Origin: Pseudomonadota bacterium
GTDB taxonomy: Bacteria; Bdellovibrionota; FAC87; UBA2466
NCBI GenBank assembly: GCA_043718025.1
Contig: JAYSWN010000093.1
Location: 1-31,178, forward strand
Length of the DNA stretch: 31,178 bases
Direction: 5' to 3'
Made by a program: the position numbers and the translations under genes. Numbering within the stretch: position 1 is the stretch's first letter; each line of letters begins with the position of its first letter. Under the pieces are notes generated by a model. The model saw only the letters and a program-made list of their open reading frames with translations. It ran no database searches and had not been told where the DNA came from. Positions 11,225 to 31,178 of the stretch are shown here, in pieces.

Positions 11225-14200
11225 TTACGGAGTGGGGACGATGGCGAGGTTGTCGCCCATTTCGTTGGCGTTGTCACCACGGTTTGCGGTGTCGCCCAAT
11301 CCTAACTGACCAGAGCGGTTGTCGCCCCAGCATTTAAACTTTTCGTTGGTGCCGATCGCGCAAACGTGAAAGCTTCCCGAGACGATTTCGCGCACCGTAA
11401 AACCGGCGCCCAGCGATACCAACGCCATCGAGTTGCCCATGTCGCTTGGGTACCCGCCTTTGTTTTGGGTTGAGCCAATGCCAAGCTGTCCTTTAGCATT
11501 GTCGCCCCAACATTTAACTTGGTTAGATTGGGTGCGAGCGCAAACGTGAGTATTTCCGGCCACCACTTGCGCTAAAGGGGCAGAACCTAGGTCAACTCTA
11601 GAAAAAGGATCGGCCACCCGTTGTCCGGAGGCGCGGCCATAAGCGGGAAGATCGAAACCGTACTGGCCGCCGCACAATCCAGGAATGCCGTTGCCGTTTT
11701 GGCACAGGGCTTTTCCGAAGTTTCCGGAAGAGTCATTTCGACCAATCGCTGCCAACGTGCCCGAGCCCAAAACAAAAATGCGGAAGGCCCCGCCCGAAGC
11801 AATGGATTGCACCGGTGACGCTTCATCAAGGGCAATTTCGGCAAGGTTGGTACCCATTTCGTTTGGGCCATCTCCGCGGTGTTCCCAATCGCCAGTAGCC
11901 AATTGACCAAAGAAATTATCACCAAAACATTTGGCGGCGCCGTTGGCCAGAATGGCGCAAGTGTCGCTGCCGCCCACTGAAAGTTTTACGGCGGTTGCGG
12001 CCAAATCAACGACGGGTAAATTGTTGCCCATGGTAGCGCCCGAAAGCCCTCTCGTAAGAGTGTCTCCGTACCCCAATTGCCCCTGCGCATTTAAGCCCCA
12101 GCATTTTACTTGGCCATTGTTAAGCAAAGCGCAGTTATGGGCATAACCTGCCACTAGATCGACGGCTTTAAGCGAAGTGCCAAAATCAACCGCCACCAAA
12201 GCGTCGCCCATTTCACCGGGGGCACCCCCAAGGGAAACCGCGGAACTCTTAGCGCCCAACTGACCGCCCGTATTTCCGCCAAAACACTTGGTTGAGTCGT
12301 CATCTAAGATCGCGCAAGTGTGCCAATAGCCGGTCACCACTTTTTTTGCTTTTCTGCCGGTGCCAAGTGAGATGGGCGGCAACGCCGCCACTTGCCCGGC
12401 CGAATTACCGCGCCCAACCTTATCGCCGGTGCCCAACTGCCCGACTTCATTGTTTCCGAAACAGCGTAAATCGCGATAGCGGTTTAATTCACAAGTGTGT
12501 TCGCCATTAGCCGAAAGCTGAATGGGTAAAGTACCGCCAGCTGCCAACGTACCGCTGGCGGAACGAGGGGTGCCGTTGTCATCAAACGAAACAGTTAAGG
12601 TTTGAGATACCAGTCCAGCCGCCGTGGGATCGAATCGAAAGGAGGCGGTACAGCTGGCGCCAATCGACAAGGTCGAGGGGCAAAGGCTGGAGATCAATGT
12701 GAATGGGGCCGCTACCGTCGAGAAAGTGACGGCGGAAACGTTTGAGGTTCCGGTGTTGGTCACCGTCAGTGAGACAGTGGCGCTTTGAGCCCCAACCGCC
12801 ACGTCCCCAAAGTTAATACTCCCCACCGACAACGCCCCTTCGGGGTGGCTGGTGCCAGTGACGGCGAGAGTTACCGTGGCGGTGGCCAGGTTAATACCGT
12901 TAGCGTAGGTGAAAACAAGGTTGGTCAATGGGGCAATCGACGGCAACAGAGCCGTTGGTGAAAAGCGTAACGTAAAAGTGCACGAGGCTCCCGCCGCCAG
13001 CGTAGCTGCGCAAGTTCCGGGCAAGTAGGTTAAAGGTGCCGCGGCACCCGTAGCTCCAATACTCGTGGCCTGAGCGCCGCCCGCGGCATTCCTCAAAGTA
13101 AACGAAGCGTTGGTCACGGAGTTATAAGCGGTATCGCCAAATGAATAAGACGGCCCCTGCACAATAGAAAGCACCGCCGCATTCTGCCCGTTACCGGTAA
13201 AGCTAATGGTGGCTTCGGTTTCAGGTGGGGGGCCAACCAGTGACTTGGTGTACTTTAGCGTGGCGGACCGATTTGTCGCGCCCGATGCGCTCGGGGTGAA
13301 TCGAACCTGCAATGTACAATCGCCGATAATGTCAGCTGGGCAATCTCCCCCCCCGCTGCCACCCGGATAACTGCCATTGGTAAAAGTGTAAGGCGCCGGC
13401 ATTGACGGCACATTTACGCCGTAGGCCGGGTGACTCGCGCCGCCGCCGTAGTACTTAATGGTCACCGCCAAATCACGGGTGTTACCGATCACGGTGTCGG
13501 CGAAAGGCGCGTCATTCACGACCAAGGTGGGCTCAAAGGTGCCTACTCCAGTAAAAGTGCGAGTGGCCTGCTGGGCCGCTTGGCCGTCGCTGTAGGACGC
13601 CGCCAAGACCTGCAAAAAACCACCTTCGGCCGTTGGTAAAAACCGAACCACGATTGTGCAAAAGGCCCCACCAGCCAATGCGGCGCCGCAGTTGTTGGTG
13701 AGGATGCTAAATGGGGCGGAAAGGCCCGAAAAGGCCAATGTGGTATTCACGCTGCTGCTCGCCGTATTTCGCAACGTGAAAGTTCTGTCGACGGGAAAGT
13801 TCTTAGAAACTGTTCCGTAGTCTGAAGACGGTAGAGGGTCGATGGTTACCGCCGCTAAGTCTCCGCCTTGCCCGGTCAAAGAGCCGGCATTGGAAACTAC
13901 ATTCGAGACGCCGTTAAGGTAGCTGAACTGTAACGTGCCGCTATAGCTCTGCACTAGCGGCGGGGTAAACCGAACCATTACCGTGCACGAAGCACCAGAA
14001 AAAGAGACTCCCAAGTCAGGACAAGTTCCACCGATGCCGGGGTACGGCCCCCCCACAAAAGAAAACCTAGTGGGGTCGGAAAAGGTAACGGTATTGAACT
14101 TAATGGCCGGGATTCCCGTTCTGGTAATAGTGACGGGAAGATTTGCAGAACCGCCAGCCAGCACCTTGCCGAAGTTGGCACTGCCCACCGAAACTTGAGA

Positions 14201-15394
14201 GGTCTGCCAGCCGGTGCCACTTAAGGCGCCGCCCGTCGATGACGAGGTGACACCGGCTCCGTTATTAAAACTTAGAACCACCGTCCCTGAAGTGGTAATG
14301 CCCGCTGCCGGGTGATAGCGAACCGCAATAGTGCACGACGGAGTAGAAAAAGGGACGTTCAATGCACAAGTTCCGCCGGCGCCCGGAAAGGCCCCGGCCA
14401 AAGTAAAGTCAGCGTGATTGAAGGTAGCAGAAGTGATCATGGCGGGTAGGGTTCCAGAGCGAGTTACGGTTACCGCTACATCTTGCTCGCCGTTGTAAGC
14501 CACTTGCCCAAAATTGATCGCACCCACATCGAGAGTGGAGGGGATGGGTAAAGCCGCAAACGATACGGTGGCGTCGTATATCGATTTGGCCGTGTAAGAA
14601 CCGTTGCTGTAAGTCATTTCAAAACGGCCGTTAAAGCTTCCGACCTGTGTGGCATTTTGCCTCACCACCAGTTGGCAGCTGGTGCTGACTGAACTGCCGC
14701 AGGTGGTGCTCAGAATTGAAAAGGTTCCTGACTTCACCGCGATATTCACGCCGGTGGCGGGAAAGGCGCCAAAGTACTCCACATCAAAAATTTTTTGGAA
14801 TGGCACCGCATTCACCGGTACGGTGCCTAAATTAGAAAAGGTGGCGCCGGGAGTGGCCGCCGCGTCTTTTATACGCAGGCTAACGATGTTGGCGCCCGCG
14901 CCGGAGAAGTCTACGTTCACCGCACTGGTTTCAGTGTAGGAGGTGTAGCCGAGGTTGAGTCTTCCGCTAAAGTTGGCAATCGCATCAGGGCTAAAGCATA
15001 AAACCAGCGTGCAATCGGCTTTTCCTGCAATCGTGTCTTGGCAAGTTCCGCCGGTACCGGGAGATTTTGGCGCGACTCCGGGCGTGGTGCAAAAACCAAA
15101 AGCTGAACTGCCGGTAAAGCTTGCGGCCACGTTGGTGGCGTCTCCGATTGCGGTATTGCGCACCAACACGGTAATCGGCACCAGCGCATTCACCGGCTGA
15201 AGCCCATAGACCCAACGGGTTACCGAGGCTTGCAGCACCGCACGATTGACCGTGTTGTACTTGTGCTTCTCTTCCGCAGCCTTGCCATCGGGATCTTTTG
15301 CAGAGAAGAAATTCTGCACCTTGCAGCCAGAGGTCAGCGCCAAAAGCGCCAGCACCATAAATTTTCTTGCGCCGAATTGTCGCACGGTAGCCAC
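11225..15394 (-). CDS. Large surface lipoprotein: about 8 Ig-like (choice-of-anchor D/ASH-like) repeats plus C-terminal RCC1-like beta-propeller
   Basis: Lipobox LTSGC; recurring FG.V...PG.GGTC...C...V.F.P...L.Y.NG units; RCC1 repeats HxCA...KCWGxNxxGQLG with (E/D/T)MG(D/N/T) inserts. Confidence 0.85.
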   Translation of the reverse strand: MATVRQFGARKFMVLALLALTSGCKVQNFFSAKDPDGKAAEEKHKYNTVNRAVLQASVTRWVYGLQPVNALVPITVLVRNTAIGDATNVAASFTGSSAFGFCTTPGVAPKSPGTGGTCQDTIAGKADCTLVLCFSPDAIANFSGRLNLGYTSYTETSAVNVDFSGAGANIVSLRIKDAAATPGATFSNLGTVPVNAVPFQKIFDVEYFGAFPATGVNIAVKSGTFSILSTTCGSSVSTSCQLVVRQNATQVGSFNGRFEMTYSNGSYTAKSIYDATVSFAALPIPSTLDVGAINFGQVAYNGEQDVAVTVTRSGTLPAMITSATFNHADFTLAGAFPGAGGTCALNVPFSTPSCTIAVRYHPAAGITTSGTVVLSFNNGAGVTSSSTGGALSGTGWQTSQVSVGSANFGKVLAGGSANLPVTITRTGIPAIKFNTVTFSDPTRFSFVGGPYPGIGGTCPDLGVSFSGASCTVMVRFTPPLVQSYSGTLQFSYLNGVSNVVSNAGSLTGQGGDLAAVTIDPLPSSDYGTVSKNFPVDRTFTLRNTASSSVNTTLAFSGLSAPFSILTNNCGAALAGGAFCTIVVRFLPTAEGGFLQVLAASYSDGQAAQQATRTFTGVGTFEPTLVVNDAPFADTVIGNTRDLAVTIKYYGGGASHPAYGVNVPSMPAPYTFTNGSYPGGSGGGDCPADIIGDCTLQVRFTPSASGATNRSATLKYTKSLVGPPPETEATISFTGNGQNAAVLSIVQGPSYSFGDTAYNSVTNASFTLRNAAGGAQATSIGATGAAAPLTYLPGTCAATLAAGASCTFTLRFSPTALLPSIAPLTNLVFTYANGINLATATVTLAVTGTSHPEGALSVGSINFGDVAVGAQSATVSLTVTNTGTSNVSAVTFSTVAAPFTLISSLCPSTLSIGASCTASFRFDPTAAGLVSQTLTVSFDDNGTPRSASGTLAAGGTLPIQLSANGEHTCELNRYRDLRCFGNNEVGQLGTGDKVGRGNSAGQVAALPPISLGTGRKAKKVVTGYWHTCAILDDDSTKCFGGNTGGQLGAKSSAVSLGGAPGEMGDALVAVDFGTSLKAVDLVAGYAHNCALLNNGQVKCWGLNAQGQLGYGDTLTRGLSGATMGNNLPVVDLAATAVKLSVGGSDTCAILANGAAKCFGDNFFGQLATGDWEHRGDGPNEMGTNLAEIALDEASPVQSIASGGAFRIFVLGSGTLAAIGRNDSSGNFGKALCQNGNGIPGLCGGQYGFDLPAYGRASGQRVADPFSRVDLGSAPLAQVVAGNTHVCARTQSNQVKCWGDNAKGQLGIGSTQNKGGYPSDMGNSMALVSLGAGFTVREIVSGSFHVCAIGTNEKFKCWGDNRSGQLGLGDTANRGDNANEMGDNLAIVPTP

Positions 15395-27099: not shown

Positions 27100-27723
27100 T
27101 TAACGGACATCGTGCACGCCATAACTGAAGGCCGTCTCTTGATTGGGCTCAGCAAGATCGATAAAGCTGCCATCAAGAATTCTTAGTGCGCTGACGTATT
27201 CCAAAACTTCAGTTTCCCCGCCGCCAACTTGTGAAACTCGTCTCACCTTAGGTAAGGTCTCTTTGTTTACTCGAATGGTTAAAGCTGGCCGCTCCAAAAA
27301 TGTGGTGTTTCCGATCACCCTCAATTTCTTACCATCCATCAGCTTTTTTAGAATTGGCAATACCTGGCGGTGTTCGGGGAATACGCTCGAATCGGGAATT
27401 AAATAAGGGGCTTGATATCCATCGGTCGCCAACTTAATCGTCAGCAGTTGCCTTGGCGGATAGAAGGTTCTGCAGATTGTCGCCGCTCCAATGCAACCAA
27501 CCGCAAGCGGCCAGACCTGCTCCATAAAATAGGTGGCGCATCCCCCGAGTACTGCCCCTCCGCCTATAAACAGAAGGTTGCGGGCGCCAGTGCCCCGTTC
27601 AAGATTGAGAGTGCCCTGGATGTCGGTGACCACTAAATCTTCAGACACGAACCGAACTTTTACCAAAGTGGCCGAAGCAGAAGTGAAGCAGGCTACAACG
27701 AGAAGCATCGCAACTGTTCTCAT
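27100..27723 (-). CDS. Hypothetical secreted or membrane protein
   Basis: AGGT SD; signal peptide ending ASA; internal Gly-rich hydrophobic hairpin. Confidence 0.65.
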   Translation of the reverse strand: MRTVAMLLVVACFTSASATLVKVRFVSEDLVVTDIQGTLNLERGTGARNLLFIGGGAVLGGCATYFMEQVWPLAVGCIGAATICRTFYPPRQLLTIKLATDGYQAPYLIPDSSVFPEHRQVLPILKKLMDGKKLRVIGNTTFLERPALTIRVNKETLPKVRRVSQVGGGETEVLEYVSALRILDGSFIDLAEPNQETAFSYGVHDVR

Positions 27724-27812
27724 CTACCTGGCGTAACACGGCTCGAAGAGCTTGAGTTAAAAATTGATGAGCTGGCGAAATTGGAGCGGGCGACGCCGTA
27801 GTGGGCGGACCA

Positions 27813-27995
27813 ATGATCGTGGTGCGCGAGTGCGCGGCTCAATGGGGTAAGGCTAAGTTAGACCGGGACGAGCTGGCAAGACTTCGTCTGGTCGAGAAGT
27901 GGCCTCTGAAACGTCTCCAGGCTCATTGCAAGCTTGGAAGGACGAAAATCAAGGAAGAGTTGCGGCGTTTGTCCGGCTCCGGCCAAGGGAGTTAA
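27813..27995 (+). CDS. Small basic HTH-like protein or remnant (60 aa)
   Basis: LDRDELARLRLVEKWPLKRLQAHCKLGRTKIKEELRRL has the helix-turn(G)-helix pattern; start uncertain (27801 or 27813). Confidence 0.4.
   Translation: MIVVRECAAQWGKAKLDRDELARLRLVEKWPLKRLQAHCKLGRTKIKEELRRLSGSGQGS
27860..27907 (+). repeat. Imperfect direct repeat, copy 1 (48 bp)
   Basis: AGACCGGGACGAGCTGGCAA-GAC-TTCGTCTGGTCGAGAA-G-TGGCCTCT shares 44 identical positions with 29683-29728. Confidence 0.92.
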
Positions 27996-28044
27996 GAGGG
28001 CAAAATATGGACGGAGAGCTCTCCCAGTCTAGGACGAATAGCCC

Positions 28045-28074
28045 TTTACTTAGGTGTACACCTTGTGGTACTCT
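28045..28074 (+). promoter_or_regulatory. TA promoter and operator
   Basis: TTTACT, 18 bp, TACTCT (preceded by TGn); perfect palindrome AGGTGTACACCT (28052-28063) in the spacer; second GTAC core 12 bp downstream. Confidence 0.75.
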
Positions 28075-28097
28075 TTAGTTTGAAAGGTGGTGCGTAT

Positions 28098-28358
28098 ATG
28101 CAAAATACCAACCCCAAGCAGTTAAGAGCTGAACTCAAGGATTTCCTTAATCTCGCGGCTAAAGAGCCCATTCGGATTCAGCGTCGGTCCGGAGAAAACT
28201 ATATCCTCGTAAAGGAAGAATCCTATCAGGAACTTCAGAACGAGGTCGTCTCTTTGCAGCGCCGACTACTCGGAATGTCGCAGGCCGTCTCAGGATCGAC
28301 ACAGGAATATAAAATCGGTGACAAAAACAGGCTCTCTCGACTGAAGAAGAAAAAGTAA
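28098..28358 (+). CDS. Phd/YefM-family antitoxin
   Basis: QLRAELKDFLNLAAKEPIRIQRRSGENYILVKEESYQEL fits the Phd/YefM N-terminus; AAGGTGG SD; TAATG coupling to the next gene. Confidence 0.8.
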   Translation: MQNTNPKQLRAELKDFLNLAAKEPIRIQRRSGENYILVKEESYQELQNEVVSLQRRLLGMSQAVSGSTQEYKIGDKNRLSRLKKKK

Positions 28359-28696
28359 TGGCTCGATTCCTTTTCACAGAGAACTACAATGCGGCCCTCG
28401 AGCGAATCGAGGACCACATCTTTCGAACCACTGAATCACTCGAGCAGGTGGAAAGGTTTTTAGACCAGCACGATAGTGCACTGAATTTTCTTGCAGAGAA
28501 TCCCAGTACCCCTGCTCCTCACCCCGTTACGGGTGACCAATCGTGGGTGTTTTCCGACGGCAGGTACCGTCTCTTTTTTAAAGCTGTCCCTAGTGGGGCG
28601 GGAGTCACAATCTTCCTCATTCACCTTATTGATAATCGGGAAAGTAATCTAGGCATTTACCCTGGCAATAAGATCCCAACATTTAGTGAAAATTAA
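28358..28696 (+). CDS. RelE/ParE-like toxin
   Basis: FLFTENYNAALERIEDHI...LNFLAENP...GRYRLFF...IFLIHLIDNR follows the RelE/ParE pattern; coupled to the antitoxin. Confidence 0.72.
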   Translation: MARFLFTENYNAALERIEDHIFRTTESLEQVERFLDQHDSALNFLAENPSTPAPHPVTGDQSWVFSDGRYRLFFKAVPSGAGVTIFLIHLIDNRESNLGIYPGNKIPTFSEN

Positions 28697-28842
28697 TTAA
28701 GTCCCCAGCGTAAGTGGACTTTGTCCGACACGGGAGATTCAACGCTTCGTAAGAGGTTTTACGCATGAAGTTTATTGGCTATGTGCTTATGTGCTTCCTA
28801 AACAAAATCGCCAGAATCCTCCGAGGCGGGTATCTTCCCCGG

Positions 28843-29262
28843 ATGAACTTTCGGCGTGCCGCCATCGTCCTATTGCTCTTACTTGCGCCGGGGACGCTCT
28901 TTGGTCACCGGCTGCTCCGCTACGAGCCGGCGGTCGTGGAGTGCCACGGGAAGCTGCGGCTCGTCTATTTTCCGGGGCCGCCCAACTATGAGTCCATCAA
29001 AGATGGCGACGAACGGGAAGAGGTTTATATATTGGAACTCGAAGAACCGTTCGATATTGCCGCCGCCAACGATCCCAAGACGCCGCTCAATGACTCGGAG
29101 GGTTGGGGACGAAATGTAAAACGCATCCAGCTTACTAACTATGGAATGTTAGGTAGGCGAGTTGGAAAAAAAGTCACCGTGAGGGGAAGGTTGTCTGAAG
29201 CCATTTTTGGCCATCACCATACCGGCGTGTTGATGGAAGTGCTGAAAGTGACCGGAGAGTAA
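28843..29262 (+). CDS. DUF4431-like secreted protein
   Basis: Signal peptide from Met 28843; PGPPNYES, YILEL..P, IQL, VGKKVTVRGRL, HHHTGVLM resemble DUF4431 from memory. Confidence 0.65.
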   Translation: MNFRRAAIVLLLLLAPGTLFGHRLLRYEPAVVECHGKLRLVYFPGPPNYESIKDGDEREEVYILELEEPFDIAAANDPKTPLNDSEGWGRNVKRIQLTNYGMLGRRVGKKVTVRGRLSEAIFGHHHTGVLMEVLKVTGE

Positions 29263-29730
29263 ATGTACTCGCGAGCTATCAAAGGCGGTCGCCAGCGCGT
29301 CATCTACATCGATGGCAAGGACCGCCTTGTGAAGATTGGGGGTGAGCCGGCTTGGCGGAACAACAACCCGGGCAACCTTAAGAGCGGAGCCCACACACGC
29401 ATTCATGGTTCCATCGGTGTCGTCAACGGATTTGCCGTGTTTCCGACCGAGGAGATCGGGACGGAAGCGAGGATTCGGTTGTTGCAGGGAAGTAAGTATC
29501 GGAACAAGACCATCATGGAGATGGTGAAGGCTTACGCGCCGAAAAAGGACGGCAACAATCCCGAGCGGTACGCGCGGCAGATCGAGTCGATTGCTGGATT
29601 GAAACGCAATCGAGTGCTGAAGGGTCTTTCCGATTACGAGTTTGCCGCACTTATCGCGGCCATGAAACAAATCGAGGGAAACAGACCGGGACGAGCTGGC
29701 AATTTCGTCTGGTCGAGAAATGGCCTCTAA
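29263..29730 (+). CDS. Putative lysozyme-like peptidoglycan hydrolase (NNPGN family)
   Basis: AWRNNNPGNL, GFAVFPT...G, YAP..DGNNPERY and C-terminal MKQIEG; no signal peptide; starts immediately after the upstream stop. Confidence 0.65.
   Translation: MYSRAIKGGRQRVIYIDGKDRLVKIGGEPAWRNNNPGNLKSGAHTRIHGSIGVVNGFAVFPTEEIGTEARIRLLQGSKYRNKTIMEMVKAYAPKKDGNNPERYARQIESIAGLKRNRVLKGLSDYEFAALIAAMKQIEGNRPGRAGNFVWSRNGL
29683..29728 (+). repeat. Imperfect direct repeat, copy 2 (46 bp)
   Basis: AGACCGGGACGAGCTGGCAA-T-TTCGTCTGGTCGAGAA-A-TGGCCTCT overlaps the last ~15 codons of the hydrolase gene. Confidence 0.92.
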
Positions 29731-29950
29731 GACAAACAAGCTTATTACTGGGTCTCAATGAGCAACGACAAAAACTGGTGGAAGAGTTCGCAGATACGTG
29801 TCGCAAACAACGCGTTAATTGAAATAAAAAACATGGTTAGAGGTGCGTTAAGTTTCCTATCCCTACGGCTTTTCTAAAGATTTTACTCGCTTCTCTAATT
29901 CGATATGACACCTTACGATGGACGACGCGTACGCCTCGTCTCTCTCGGCT

Positions 29951-30553
29951 TCAGTGCACTTCGTCGCAGTATTTCTCGACCGAATTATCTTTGAAAAATT
30001 CGCTGGCGGGTATAGCGGGGCTGCATCCCGCATCAAGACAAAACATTGGTGGCTTACTGCCCTCTTCAGAAGCCAGTGCTCGTTCCGGATTCCATCTGGT
30101 TATTCTGTAAACTTCCCTTCGTCGGAGATTCAGCTCCAATGAGATTCCTTGTTTTTTGTCCTTATAGAAGCATTCAGCAGGGAGGGCGTGAGGATTGATC
30201 CATTTCGTCGATTCGATTTCCCAGGTCGCCGAGGGGAATTGAGCCTTTGCAACCTTCAAGTCTTTTTCCGGATCATCGCTTCTCATCTCCCAAACTAATG
30301 AATGTGCGACCTCGGAACCCTCATCGAAAAAGAATGTGATCCTTTCGGTTCCATTCTCCCGGTATTCCCACGACTTTCGGGCTCGCGCGTCCTTAAAATT
30401 GTTGATCTTGTCAGGCTTGCCAAAGAGTTGTGTAAGCTGCTGCTTAGTTGTCTTCCCGGGTGTAAGCTCGATGGCGTTTTTAAACAGTATTTTTCCAGCC
30501 CACGAGTCTGCAGTGTTAAAGCAAATCGCCAGAATCAGTAGAAATTTAATCAT
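29951..30553 (-). CDS. Secreted hypothetical protein with SmpA/OmlA (BamE)-like N-terminal motif
   Basis: GGGGAG SD; signal peptide; LTPGKTTKQQLTQLFGKPD...WEY; Cys-containing C-terminus. Confidence 0.65.
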   Translation of the reverse strand: MIKFLLILAICFNTADSWAGKILFKNAIELTPGKTTKQQLTQLFGKPDKINNFKDARARKSWEYRENGTERITFFFDEGSEVAHSLVWEMRSDDPEKDLKVAKAQFPSATWEIESTKWINPHALPAECFYKDKKQGISLELNLRRREVYRITRWNPERALASEEGSKPPMFCLDAGCSPAIPASEFFKDNSVEKYCDEVH

Positions 30554-30588
30554 TTCACACTCCCCGATTTCATTTTAGGTCCGATGTG

Positions 30589-31095
30589 TTACTGCATCCA
30601 ACTAAAAACCCCCGGAGCCTTCGCCCGCAGCGCGGCAGGATTAAGCGCGTAGCTGGCTACATCATCCGCGAAGTCTTCATAATAACTTAACATTCCGTTC
30701 GGTCTTAGAAAATGGTCAACAGGGCGCCCAGGCTTGAAACCCGAGGGACTGCCGGAATCTACAATCCACTTTGCCGCGTTTCGAAAAGAAGCCTGATCTT
30801 CGTTGGAGAGCCCAGTAAAGTATCGATGTGCCATCTCGTGAGCTAAAACTCGGGCAAGGTTGTATTTCGAATCAAAGGCCGGGTCATAAAGCGCGATGTT
30901 ATTGCCCTGGGTTGCGGCGGGGTTTTCAGGATTGTCGGGATGGTGCATCCGATAAATGGCATCAAAATCTTGGTTCTTCAAAAAATTCGGAATCTCCGCG
31001 AGCGCTTCCAAAACCCTTTCTCTTTCTTCGACCGTCCATTCGCCTGGCTTATCATTCTTCGGACCCCAATACTTCGGCCTACCGACGTTGGCCCC
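30589..31095 (-). pseudogene. Zincin-like metallopeptidase (HExxH...E), probably 5'-disrupted
   Basis: LAHEMAH and YEDFAD motifs. The frame is open from 31095 with protein-like sequence (WTVEERERVLEAL), but there is an in-frame TAA at 31096-31098 and no start codon until TTG 31011. Confidence 0.5.
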
Positions 31096-31178
31096 TTAGT
31101 TGGAGCGTTCAAGACTTCCGAATTTTGTTAGGCTGATACCACAGCCTGATTTTTTAGTGCAAAACTTTCTGGCGTTTC

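Follow-up and report, generated by a model that had tools for sequence, protein, structure and literature searches.

In the window (the whole 31,178-nt stretch of DNA analysed here) two short repeat copies lie about the ends of a small group of genes. The first of them probably sits in the cut-off C-terminal tail of a large serine recombinase (LSR), at the left edge of an island inserted at a tRNA gene, and the second is probably a deletion joint with a second module of the same kind. Taken as a pair the repeats are probably no more than a common scar, and their two copies are not equivalent; the points of interest are the split serine integrase and a conserved inverted repeat (dyad) inside its tail rather than the pair of repeats. 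The features to which the text refers are the following:

27782..27811, + strand: predicted attL half-site with the P' arm, belonging to a serine-integrase island in the 3' end of tRNA-Gly; the module similarity starts here
27783..27995, + strand: 70-codon HTH-like frame without a conserved start, in phase with LSR ends; likely an integrase C-terminal tail, cut off
27860..27907, + strand: repeat copy 1, internal to the tail frame
27861..27893, + strand: imperfect inverted repeat around the conserved GAGCTGGCA motif; covariation across the family is seen between its outer arms (27861-27866 with 27888-27893)
28065..28358, + strand: Phd/YefM-like antitoxin (26.2 bits, under the cut-off of 29.8)
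28358..28696, + strand: ParE-like toxin (23.8 bits, over the cut-off of 23)
28765..29262, + strand: DUF4431 protein, which adjoins the hydrolase gene in relatives too
29263..29730, + strand: truncated endolysin-like hydrolase gene, 144 native residues and an 11-residue stub
29683..29695, + strand: 13-nt microhomology, native hydrolase sequence equal to 27860-27872; the joint falls inside
29696..29728, + strand: tail-derived portion of copy 2, with a 2-nt deletion and weak similarity onward to about 29802

The repeat pair

Copy 1 (48 nt) and copy 2 (29683-29728, 46 nt) are identical in 44 of 48 nt (BLASTN E 2.4e-12 against the 4.14-Mb genome) and share identical blocks of 20, 16 and 8 nt. The minimum-energy fold predicted for both is a hairpin with two G-T pairs and a bulged G, and the GAC/T indel between the copies falls in its loop. 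In all of these points the first-pass annotation, which had been made from the letters of the window, was confirmed. As ssDNA the hairpin is about as stable as shuffled sequences (z +0.23 for copy 1 and -0.36 for copy 2, with 246/1000 and 157/1000 shuffles being equally stable), and its RNA form is modestly stable (z -1.37 and -2.32). Searching the repeat genome-wide, as had been recommended, did reveal further copies, but as parts of something longer: the genome (G000) holds eight modules, found with a model from which the window was excluded, one of them containing copy 1, and copy 2 is a ninth, partial match.

The tail module and its link to large serine recombinases

The module around copy 1 measures about 200 bp and begins about 80 bp upstream of the repeat with a half-site that is similar to a tRNA 3' end. 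The similarity between modules stops abruptly at this left edge, which looks like a tRNA 3' end in reverse complement, the DNA further upstream being unrelated. The half-site is composed of the core TGGAGC (27782-27787), a 17-nt spacer and a motif that agrees with the T-loop of the tRNA except for one substitution. In the loci L005 and L012 one type of module is preceded by the sequence that flanks an unoccupied tRNA-Gly of G000, as expected for attL. A narrow profile found modules in 16 of 61 relatives, a wider one found them in 113 of the 401 genomes scanned from the phylum, and they stand in tandem in G000, G003, G006 and G010.

The frame that runs through the module is under purifying selection (pN/pS 0.28 in 27 related pairs), and an in-frame start together with an SD-like motif is present in only 12 of 120 tails. 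A structure model of the tail has three helices (pLDDT 72), and its matches to HTH folds are only weak. All 25 tails that share a contig with an LSR lie upstream of it on the same strand, a count into which the 68 strongest LSR matches were entered and for which the tails were hand-picked from 150 listed. The linked LSRs, all from relatives, carry resolvase, recombinase and zinc-ribbon domains, and their genes extend into the 3' ends of tRNA or tmRNA genes, the targets of the family being tRNA Val, Leu, Ala, Glu, Pro, Arg and Gly as well as tmRNA. Codon phase 2 is occupied by the core in all 18 open LSR ends and, among 46 module rows of which 11 were unscorable, in 34 of the 35 tails scored; its phase is kept in 67 of 68 members of a wider tail set (52 of 120 unscorable). 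The distance between core and distal motif is 12 nt in all 12 matched tRNA attR sites (14 loci examined) and 17 nt in 23 of 31 modules, and this displacement by 5 bp corresponds to the shift between attB and attP of serine integrases (PMC3783163, used here in excerpt like the other sources cited).

As the tails lie upstream of LSRs, are in frame with LSR ends and are under purifying selection while mostly lacking a start, we regard the module as the likely C-terminal tail of an integrase, separated from it upon integration. The attachment site would then be placed within the integrase gene in this LSR family. On insertion into the 3' end of a tRNA gene, the catalytic body (about 550 aa) would come to lie at one edge of the island and the HTH tail (about 65 aa) at the other, excision or tandem insertion would rejoin both in frame, and successive islands accumulating at one tRNA would leave several tails in a row.

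Among database proteins, P0103 joins an LSR-like C-terminal region to the tail; it is N-terminally incomplete, and pairwise BLAST gave no match between it and L017. A full-length LSR-plus-tail protein was not found in the sequences searched, and P0115 was not supported as such a fusion on examination. Locus L215 (827-2479, G211:C54) encodes a 551-aa tyrosine integrase that is fused in frame to this HTH tail at a core of the same type. The tail is therefore not exclusive to LSRs, and different classes of recombinase may share or exchange it.

The inverted repeat inside the tail

In 12 hand-picked modules 79.5% of the cells of the dyad pair, and measures that are robust to relatedness were not significant (45/500 and 99/500). 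A set of 120 tails was compiled by protein profile, with 7 of 127 removed for stops or frameshifts, and in this set the top covarying pair is 27863/27891 (T-A 44, C-G 39, T-G 20, C-A 3). The outer stem of the dyad comes out on top of the 2,415 six-pair stems that could be formed, and it keeps this rank when the set is thinned to 80 or 64 sequences, with a narrow margin (excess pairing 0.46 vs 0.44). Jointly the six outer pairs lie above all 200 tree-based simulations, no single pair being above the 95th percentile of the null. GC bias was considered as the source of the covariation and was rejected, the association being present in both GC strata. The outer stem is top-ranked under plus-strand, minus-strand and Watson-Crick rules, so that the ranking suits an RNA, an ssDNA and a dsDNA operator alike.

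The first-pass annotation had called for a test of stem covariation and had set variation by codon position against variation by base pairing. Both are seen in the tail homologues, as variation follows codon position and yet the outer stem covaries too, and to say that the hairpin is not conserved would be too strong given the 120 tails. The support for the stem is not uniform, however: simultaneous changes of paired sites are not in excess on the tree, and RNAalifold with default settings found no consensus fold. The inner stem is poorer, with two of its five pairs formed in only 39% and 27% of rows, and a search of 27600-30000 against Rfam returned no family and one chance-level match. At the centre of the dyad (27870-27878 in the window) silent positions of the motif GAGCTGGCA are kept in most of the 120 tails, its codons GAG, CTG and GCA being kept in 98 of 114, 104 of 120 and 97 of 120 rows, respectively. 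A reading of the motif as sigma-54 or sigma-70 promoter was rejected for its wrong spacing, judged by eye against the consensus.

The dyad in the attP arm is thus probably conserved. It would most likely be a protein-binding site and possibly the operator of the tail itself, while no result demonstrates a crossover at the dyad. One could go further and suppose that the tRNA-targeting serine integrases form a widespread family with a built-in direction switch: the circle would encode the integrase together with its HTH tail, the covarying dyad of the tail, with its conserved core, would act as a second cis site (operator, hairpin or nick), integration would sever both, TA mini-islands bearing such ends but no integrase would be moved in trans and copy 2 would represent an off-target event at this site. 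We put this forward tentatively, as an idea that is less likely than not.

The joint in the hydrolase gene

We return to copy 2 and to its probable origin as a deletion joint. The hydrolase in the window has 155 aa, whereas most close relatives have 221-226 aa and end in a C-terminal DUF3892 domain of 77 residues that is missing here. From 55 homologues found 13 were aligned, and 12 of these extend beyond residue 144 into this domain. Copy 2 had been taken to supply the C-terminus of the hydrolase, but the native domain is in fact replaced by the 11-aa stub. At the DNA level three genome loci match the window up to 29695 and diverge thereafter, carrying on as hydrolase codons. Contigs of the sequencing runs X3, X4 and X5 (two studies) diverge at 29695 as well, those of X3 and X4 being identical to the window over 32 nt up to the joint. 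Copy 2 hence begins with 13 nt of native coding DNA, and the foreign DNA in it is limited to the 33 positions listed above. Since the relatives match up to 29695 and then enter DUF3892, copy 2 is most likely a microhomology deletion joint, by which a cell-wall-hydrolase-like gene was likely fused to another integrase tail. The assemblies of X1 and X2, possibly derived from the source sample, cover the whole stretch with no difference and no further joint, and the allele is therefore not an assembly error. The joint restores the entire dyad, which is not required of a chance deletion, and a Chi-like over-representation of the central motif was not observed (298 occurrences vs 293 expected). An orthologous intact allele with a second module behind the hydrolase was not found; in locus L051 a tRNA-Gly 3' fragment lies at this place.

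The history that we favour would begin with a first island entering the 3' end of tRNA-Gly, to which attL and the tail at 27782 would be due. Another insertion at the same target would have placed a further tail 3' of the hydrolase, and in a deletion via the 13-nt match, possibly favoured by the inverted repeat, the gene would have lost its DUF3892 domain and the downstream tail its att core. The same deletion perhaps took an integrase gene lying between the hydrolase and the downstream tail. The island was then likely stuck, and the TA pair would aid its retention. A scar from duplication of the small HTH gene, mentioned in the first-pass annotation as an alternative, comes near to this reading as far as a scar involving the HTH gene is concerned, but we favour a deletion as the route.

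It is also conceivable, but improbable, that replication switched templates at the 13-nt microhomology and so produced copy 2 from copy 1, in which case copy 1 would still be an integrase tail and there would never have been a second module. Copy 1 is indeed the closest match of copy 2 among the 32 modules compared, and the strong identity ends at 29728. Nevertheless, the copies differ at four positions in 48 nt, with the A at 29720 (G in copy 1) being common to other module alleles, modules are commonly tandem, and a faint similarity to the tail extends to about 29802. When the latter was tested with an anchor and with ends set post hoc, 7 of 2000 shuffles reached it, and it was not significant in an unanchored test (126 of 300 shuffles); this weakness counts in favour of a template switch from copy 1.

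Even less probable appears a role of the dyad as a second functional site of the attP arm for nicking or recombination, where the enzyme hit the dyad and a look-alike in the hydrolase gene and produced an off-target joint. The covariation of the outer stem and the silent conservation of the central codons would agree with such a site. So would the break positions, as several truncated tails stop just past GAGCTGGCA, five truncated modules ending 15-31 nt past the motif start, and another module starts at the -10 position of copy 2; these positions are, however, open to detection bias, the searches having been anchored on the motif. Hairpins promote ordinary deletions too, no enzyme was identified, and the lack of a tree excess of simultaneous changes and of an RNAalifold consensus likewise speaks against a second site.

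Largely refuted, and very improbable in our view, is the model of the first-pass annotation, according to which a non-autonomous cassette of 1.8 kb recombines at the two hairpins and is mobilised in trans by an HUH enzyme or integron integrase: the copies being direct repeats that both form a bulged hairpin, the TA cargo, the covarying outer stem and one Y1 transposase-like gene elsewhere in the genome (on another contig, with no link to the repeat) would suit it, but the left arm of copy 2 is native hydrolase sequence in a gene that is truncated there, and the module similarity begins, and the crossover likely took place, about 80 bp upstream of copy 1. The checks proposed along with the cassette also failed to support it. 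No joint or circle was present in the contigs of five runs, from which rare variants are dropped, and no empty-site or one-copy allele in these contigs or in 38 genomes. An integron integrase over the cut-off was not detected in the 92%-complete assembly (TIGR02249, best 77 bits vs 265). The criterion for attC was a hairpin between RYYYAAC and GTTRRRY boxes 40-150 bp apart, and no such pair exists on either strand of 27600-30000. The GTTAGAC that had been noticed upstream of copy 1 is present, at copy 1 only, but it has no RYYYAAC partner and the window contains 68 GTTRRRY. The repeat resembles an integron attC in its bulged hairpin and in the GTTRRRY beside copy 1, and differs from it in the missing RYYYAAC box, in the position of the hairpin on the wrong side of GTT and in the absence of an IntI over the cut-off.

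Island genes and surroundings

There is partial support for the view that the region marks one edge of a mobile island, the recombinase of which is missing from the assembly. The first-pass annotation had likewise seen mobile DNA without a recombinase in the window, which agrees with such an edge but not with the form of a cassette. A resolvase domain was not found in the 92%-complete G000 assembly, which contains a recombinase fragment only. The contig ends inside a multicopy element at 31083 and the right edge of the island is off the contig. Two attR-like arms at tRNA-Gly sit on other contigs, and their linkage to the attL half of the window was not achieved; in an attempt to link the contig end to attR, the missing 5' part of a broken peptidase gene was not found in G000. 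This metallopeptidase-like gene (30553-31178 of the window) shows a weak SprT-like match and a premature stop near its end and is interrupted at 31083 by the multicopy element, and an intact paralogue is located on C63 next to tRNA-Pro. Synteny with G002 stops at a gluconate kinase, and the search for an empty site of the island in 34 genomes gave no close orthologue of the left-flank gene.

Several further loci were observed. L051 (258-2845) has the layout of the window (module, TA pair, DUF4431, hydrolase) but a different TA pair; its distance from core to hydrolase start equals that of the window (1481 bp), and its hydrolase, followed by the tRNA-Gly fragment mentioned above, is intact. In the island cargo of L001, L073/L079 and L135-L147 a hydrolase-, transglycosylase- or peptidase-like gene repeatedly lies beside a small, probably secreted gene, and by eye these pairs resemble effector-immunity pairs. 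A mini-island of about 1.2 kb at a tRNA-Gly of G000 (C117, about 13470-14600) has an intact attR-like arm and no integrase; it carries an AbrB-like/PIN-like gene pair (by eye) and what is probably the remnant of a tail, interrupted by a transposase-like fragment, and is a candidate non-autonomous element. One IS-like end is inserted in two different tail modules of G000 (C65 1-100 and C111 1-100), and the tail module of L004 is followed closely on its 3' side by a maturase fragment of group II intron type (1485-2377, by eye). At 11225-15394 the window encodes a 1389-aa protein with repeated Ig-like segments and C-terminal RCC1-like repeats (by eye).

Comparison with known systems

Serine integrases normally need a separate directionality factor. 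If the tail is indeed gained and lost by recombination itself, this would be a different way to set direction. The LSR family is also a source of integrases that address conserved tRNA 3' ends, and the covarying dyad within the tail is a concrete target for binding tests. A description of the tail or dyad of this family was not found in the literature searched, subscription journals and supplements being outside its scope. The split-gene layout as such is already precedented by DsiB, Mx8 and SSV.

In the ssrA islands of Dehalococcoides the 3' end of the gene for the serine integrase DsiB overlaps the att site at the tmRNA 3' end, tandem and integrase-less islands occur, and the authors suggest that the gene may exist in full only in the circular form or behind a neighbouring island (PMC3146451). 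The LSR 3' end over the att site, the tandem islands and the integrase-less islands are the same here, and the window, with an attL half present and the contig ending at 31083, is at most a candidate for a cis-mobilisable island remnant in the sense of that work, which would retain both attL and attR without an integrase. In contrast, an HTH tail, conservation of its frame and an internal dyad are not described for DsiB in the excerpt of PMC3146451. In addition, the family described here uses many tRNAs besides tmRNA, and no DsiA partner was seen.

In two other systems the integrase gene is also altered by integration. The integrases of the myxophages Mx8 and Mx9 belong to the tyrosine recombinases. 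Their attP lies within the integrase gene and integration alters the C-terminus while the enzyme stays active (PMC6070905), and Mx8 is listed among the tyrosine integrases (PMC4383910). They have in common with the LSR family the att site within the integrase gene and a C-terminus changed by integration, but they are phage tyrosine enzymes, and the part that is lost is not reported as HTH in the excerpt of PMC6070905. With the suicidal SSV-type integrases of archaea, where integration splits the gene and hybrids arise from fragments of different origin (PMC7253208), our family shares the split integrase gene. The SSV-type enzymes, however, are tyrosine recombinases that end up in two inactive pseudogenes, whereas the body of the LSR retains its full set of catalytic, recombinase and zinc-ribbon domains.

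As of 2014 no targeting of tRNA genes was known for serine recombinases according to the excerpt of PMC4383910, and later surveys may differ. The integrases of A118/LI, Bxb1 and phiC31 use a site of about 50 bp with inverted distal motifs and a 5-bp shift between attP and attB (PMC3783163). The LSR family resembles them in its domain set, in a site with inverted distal motifs and in this shift, and it is distinct from them in targeting tRNA 3' ends, with T-loop sequence as the distal motif of attB.
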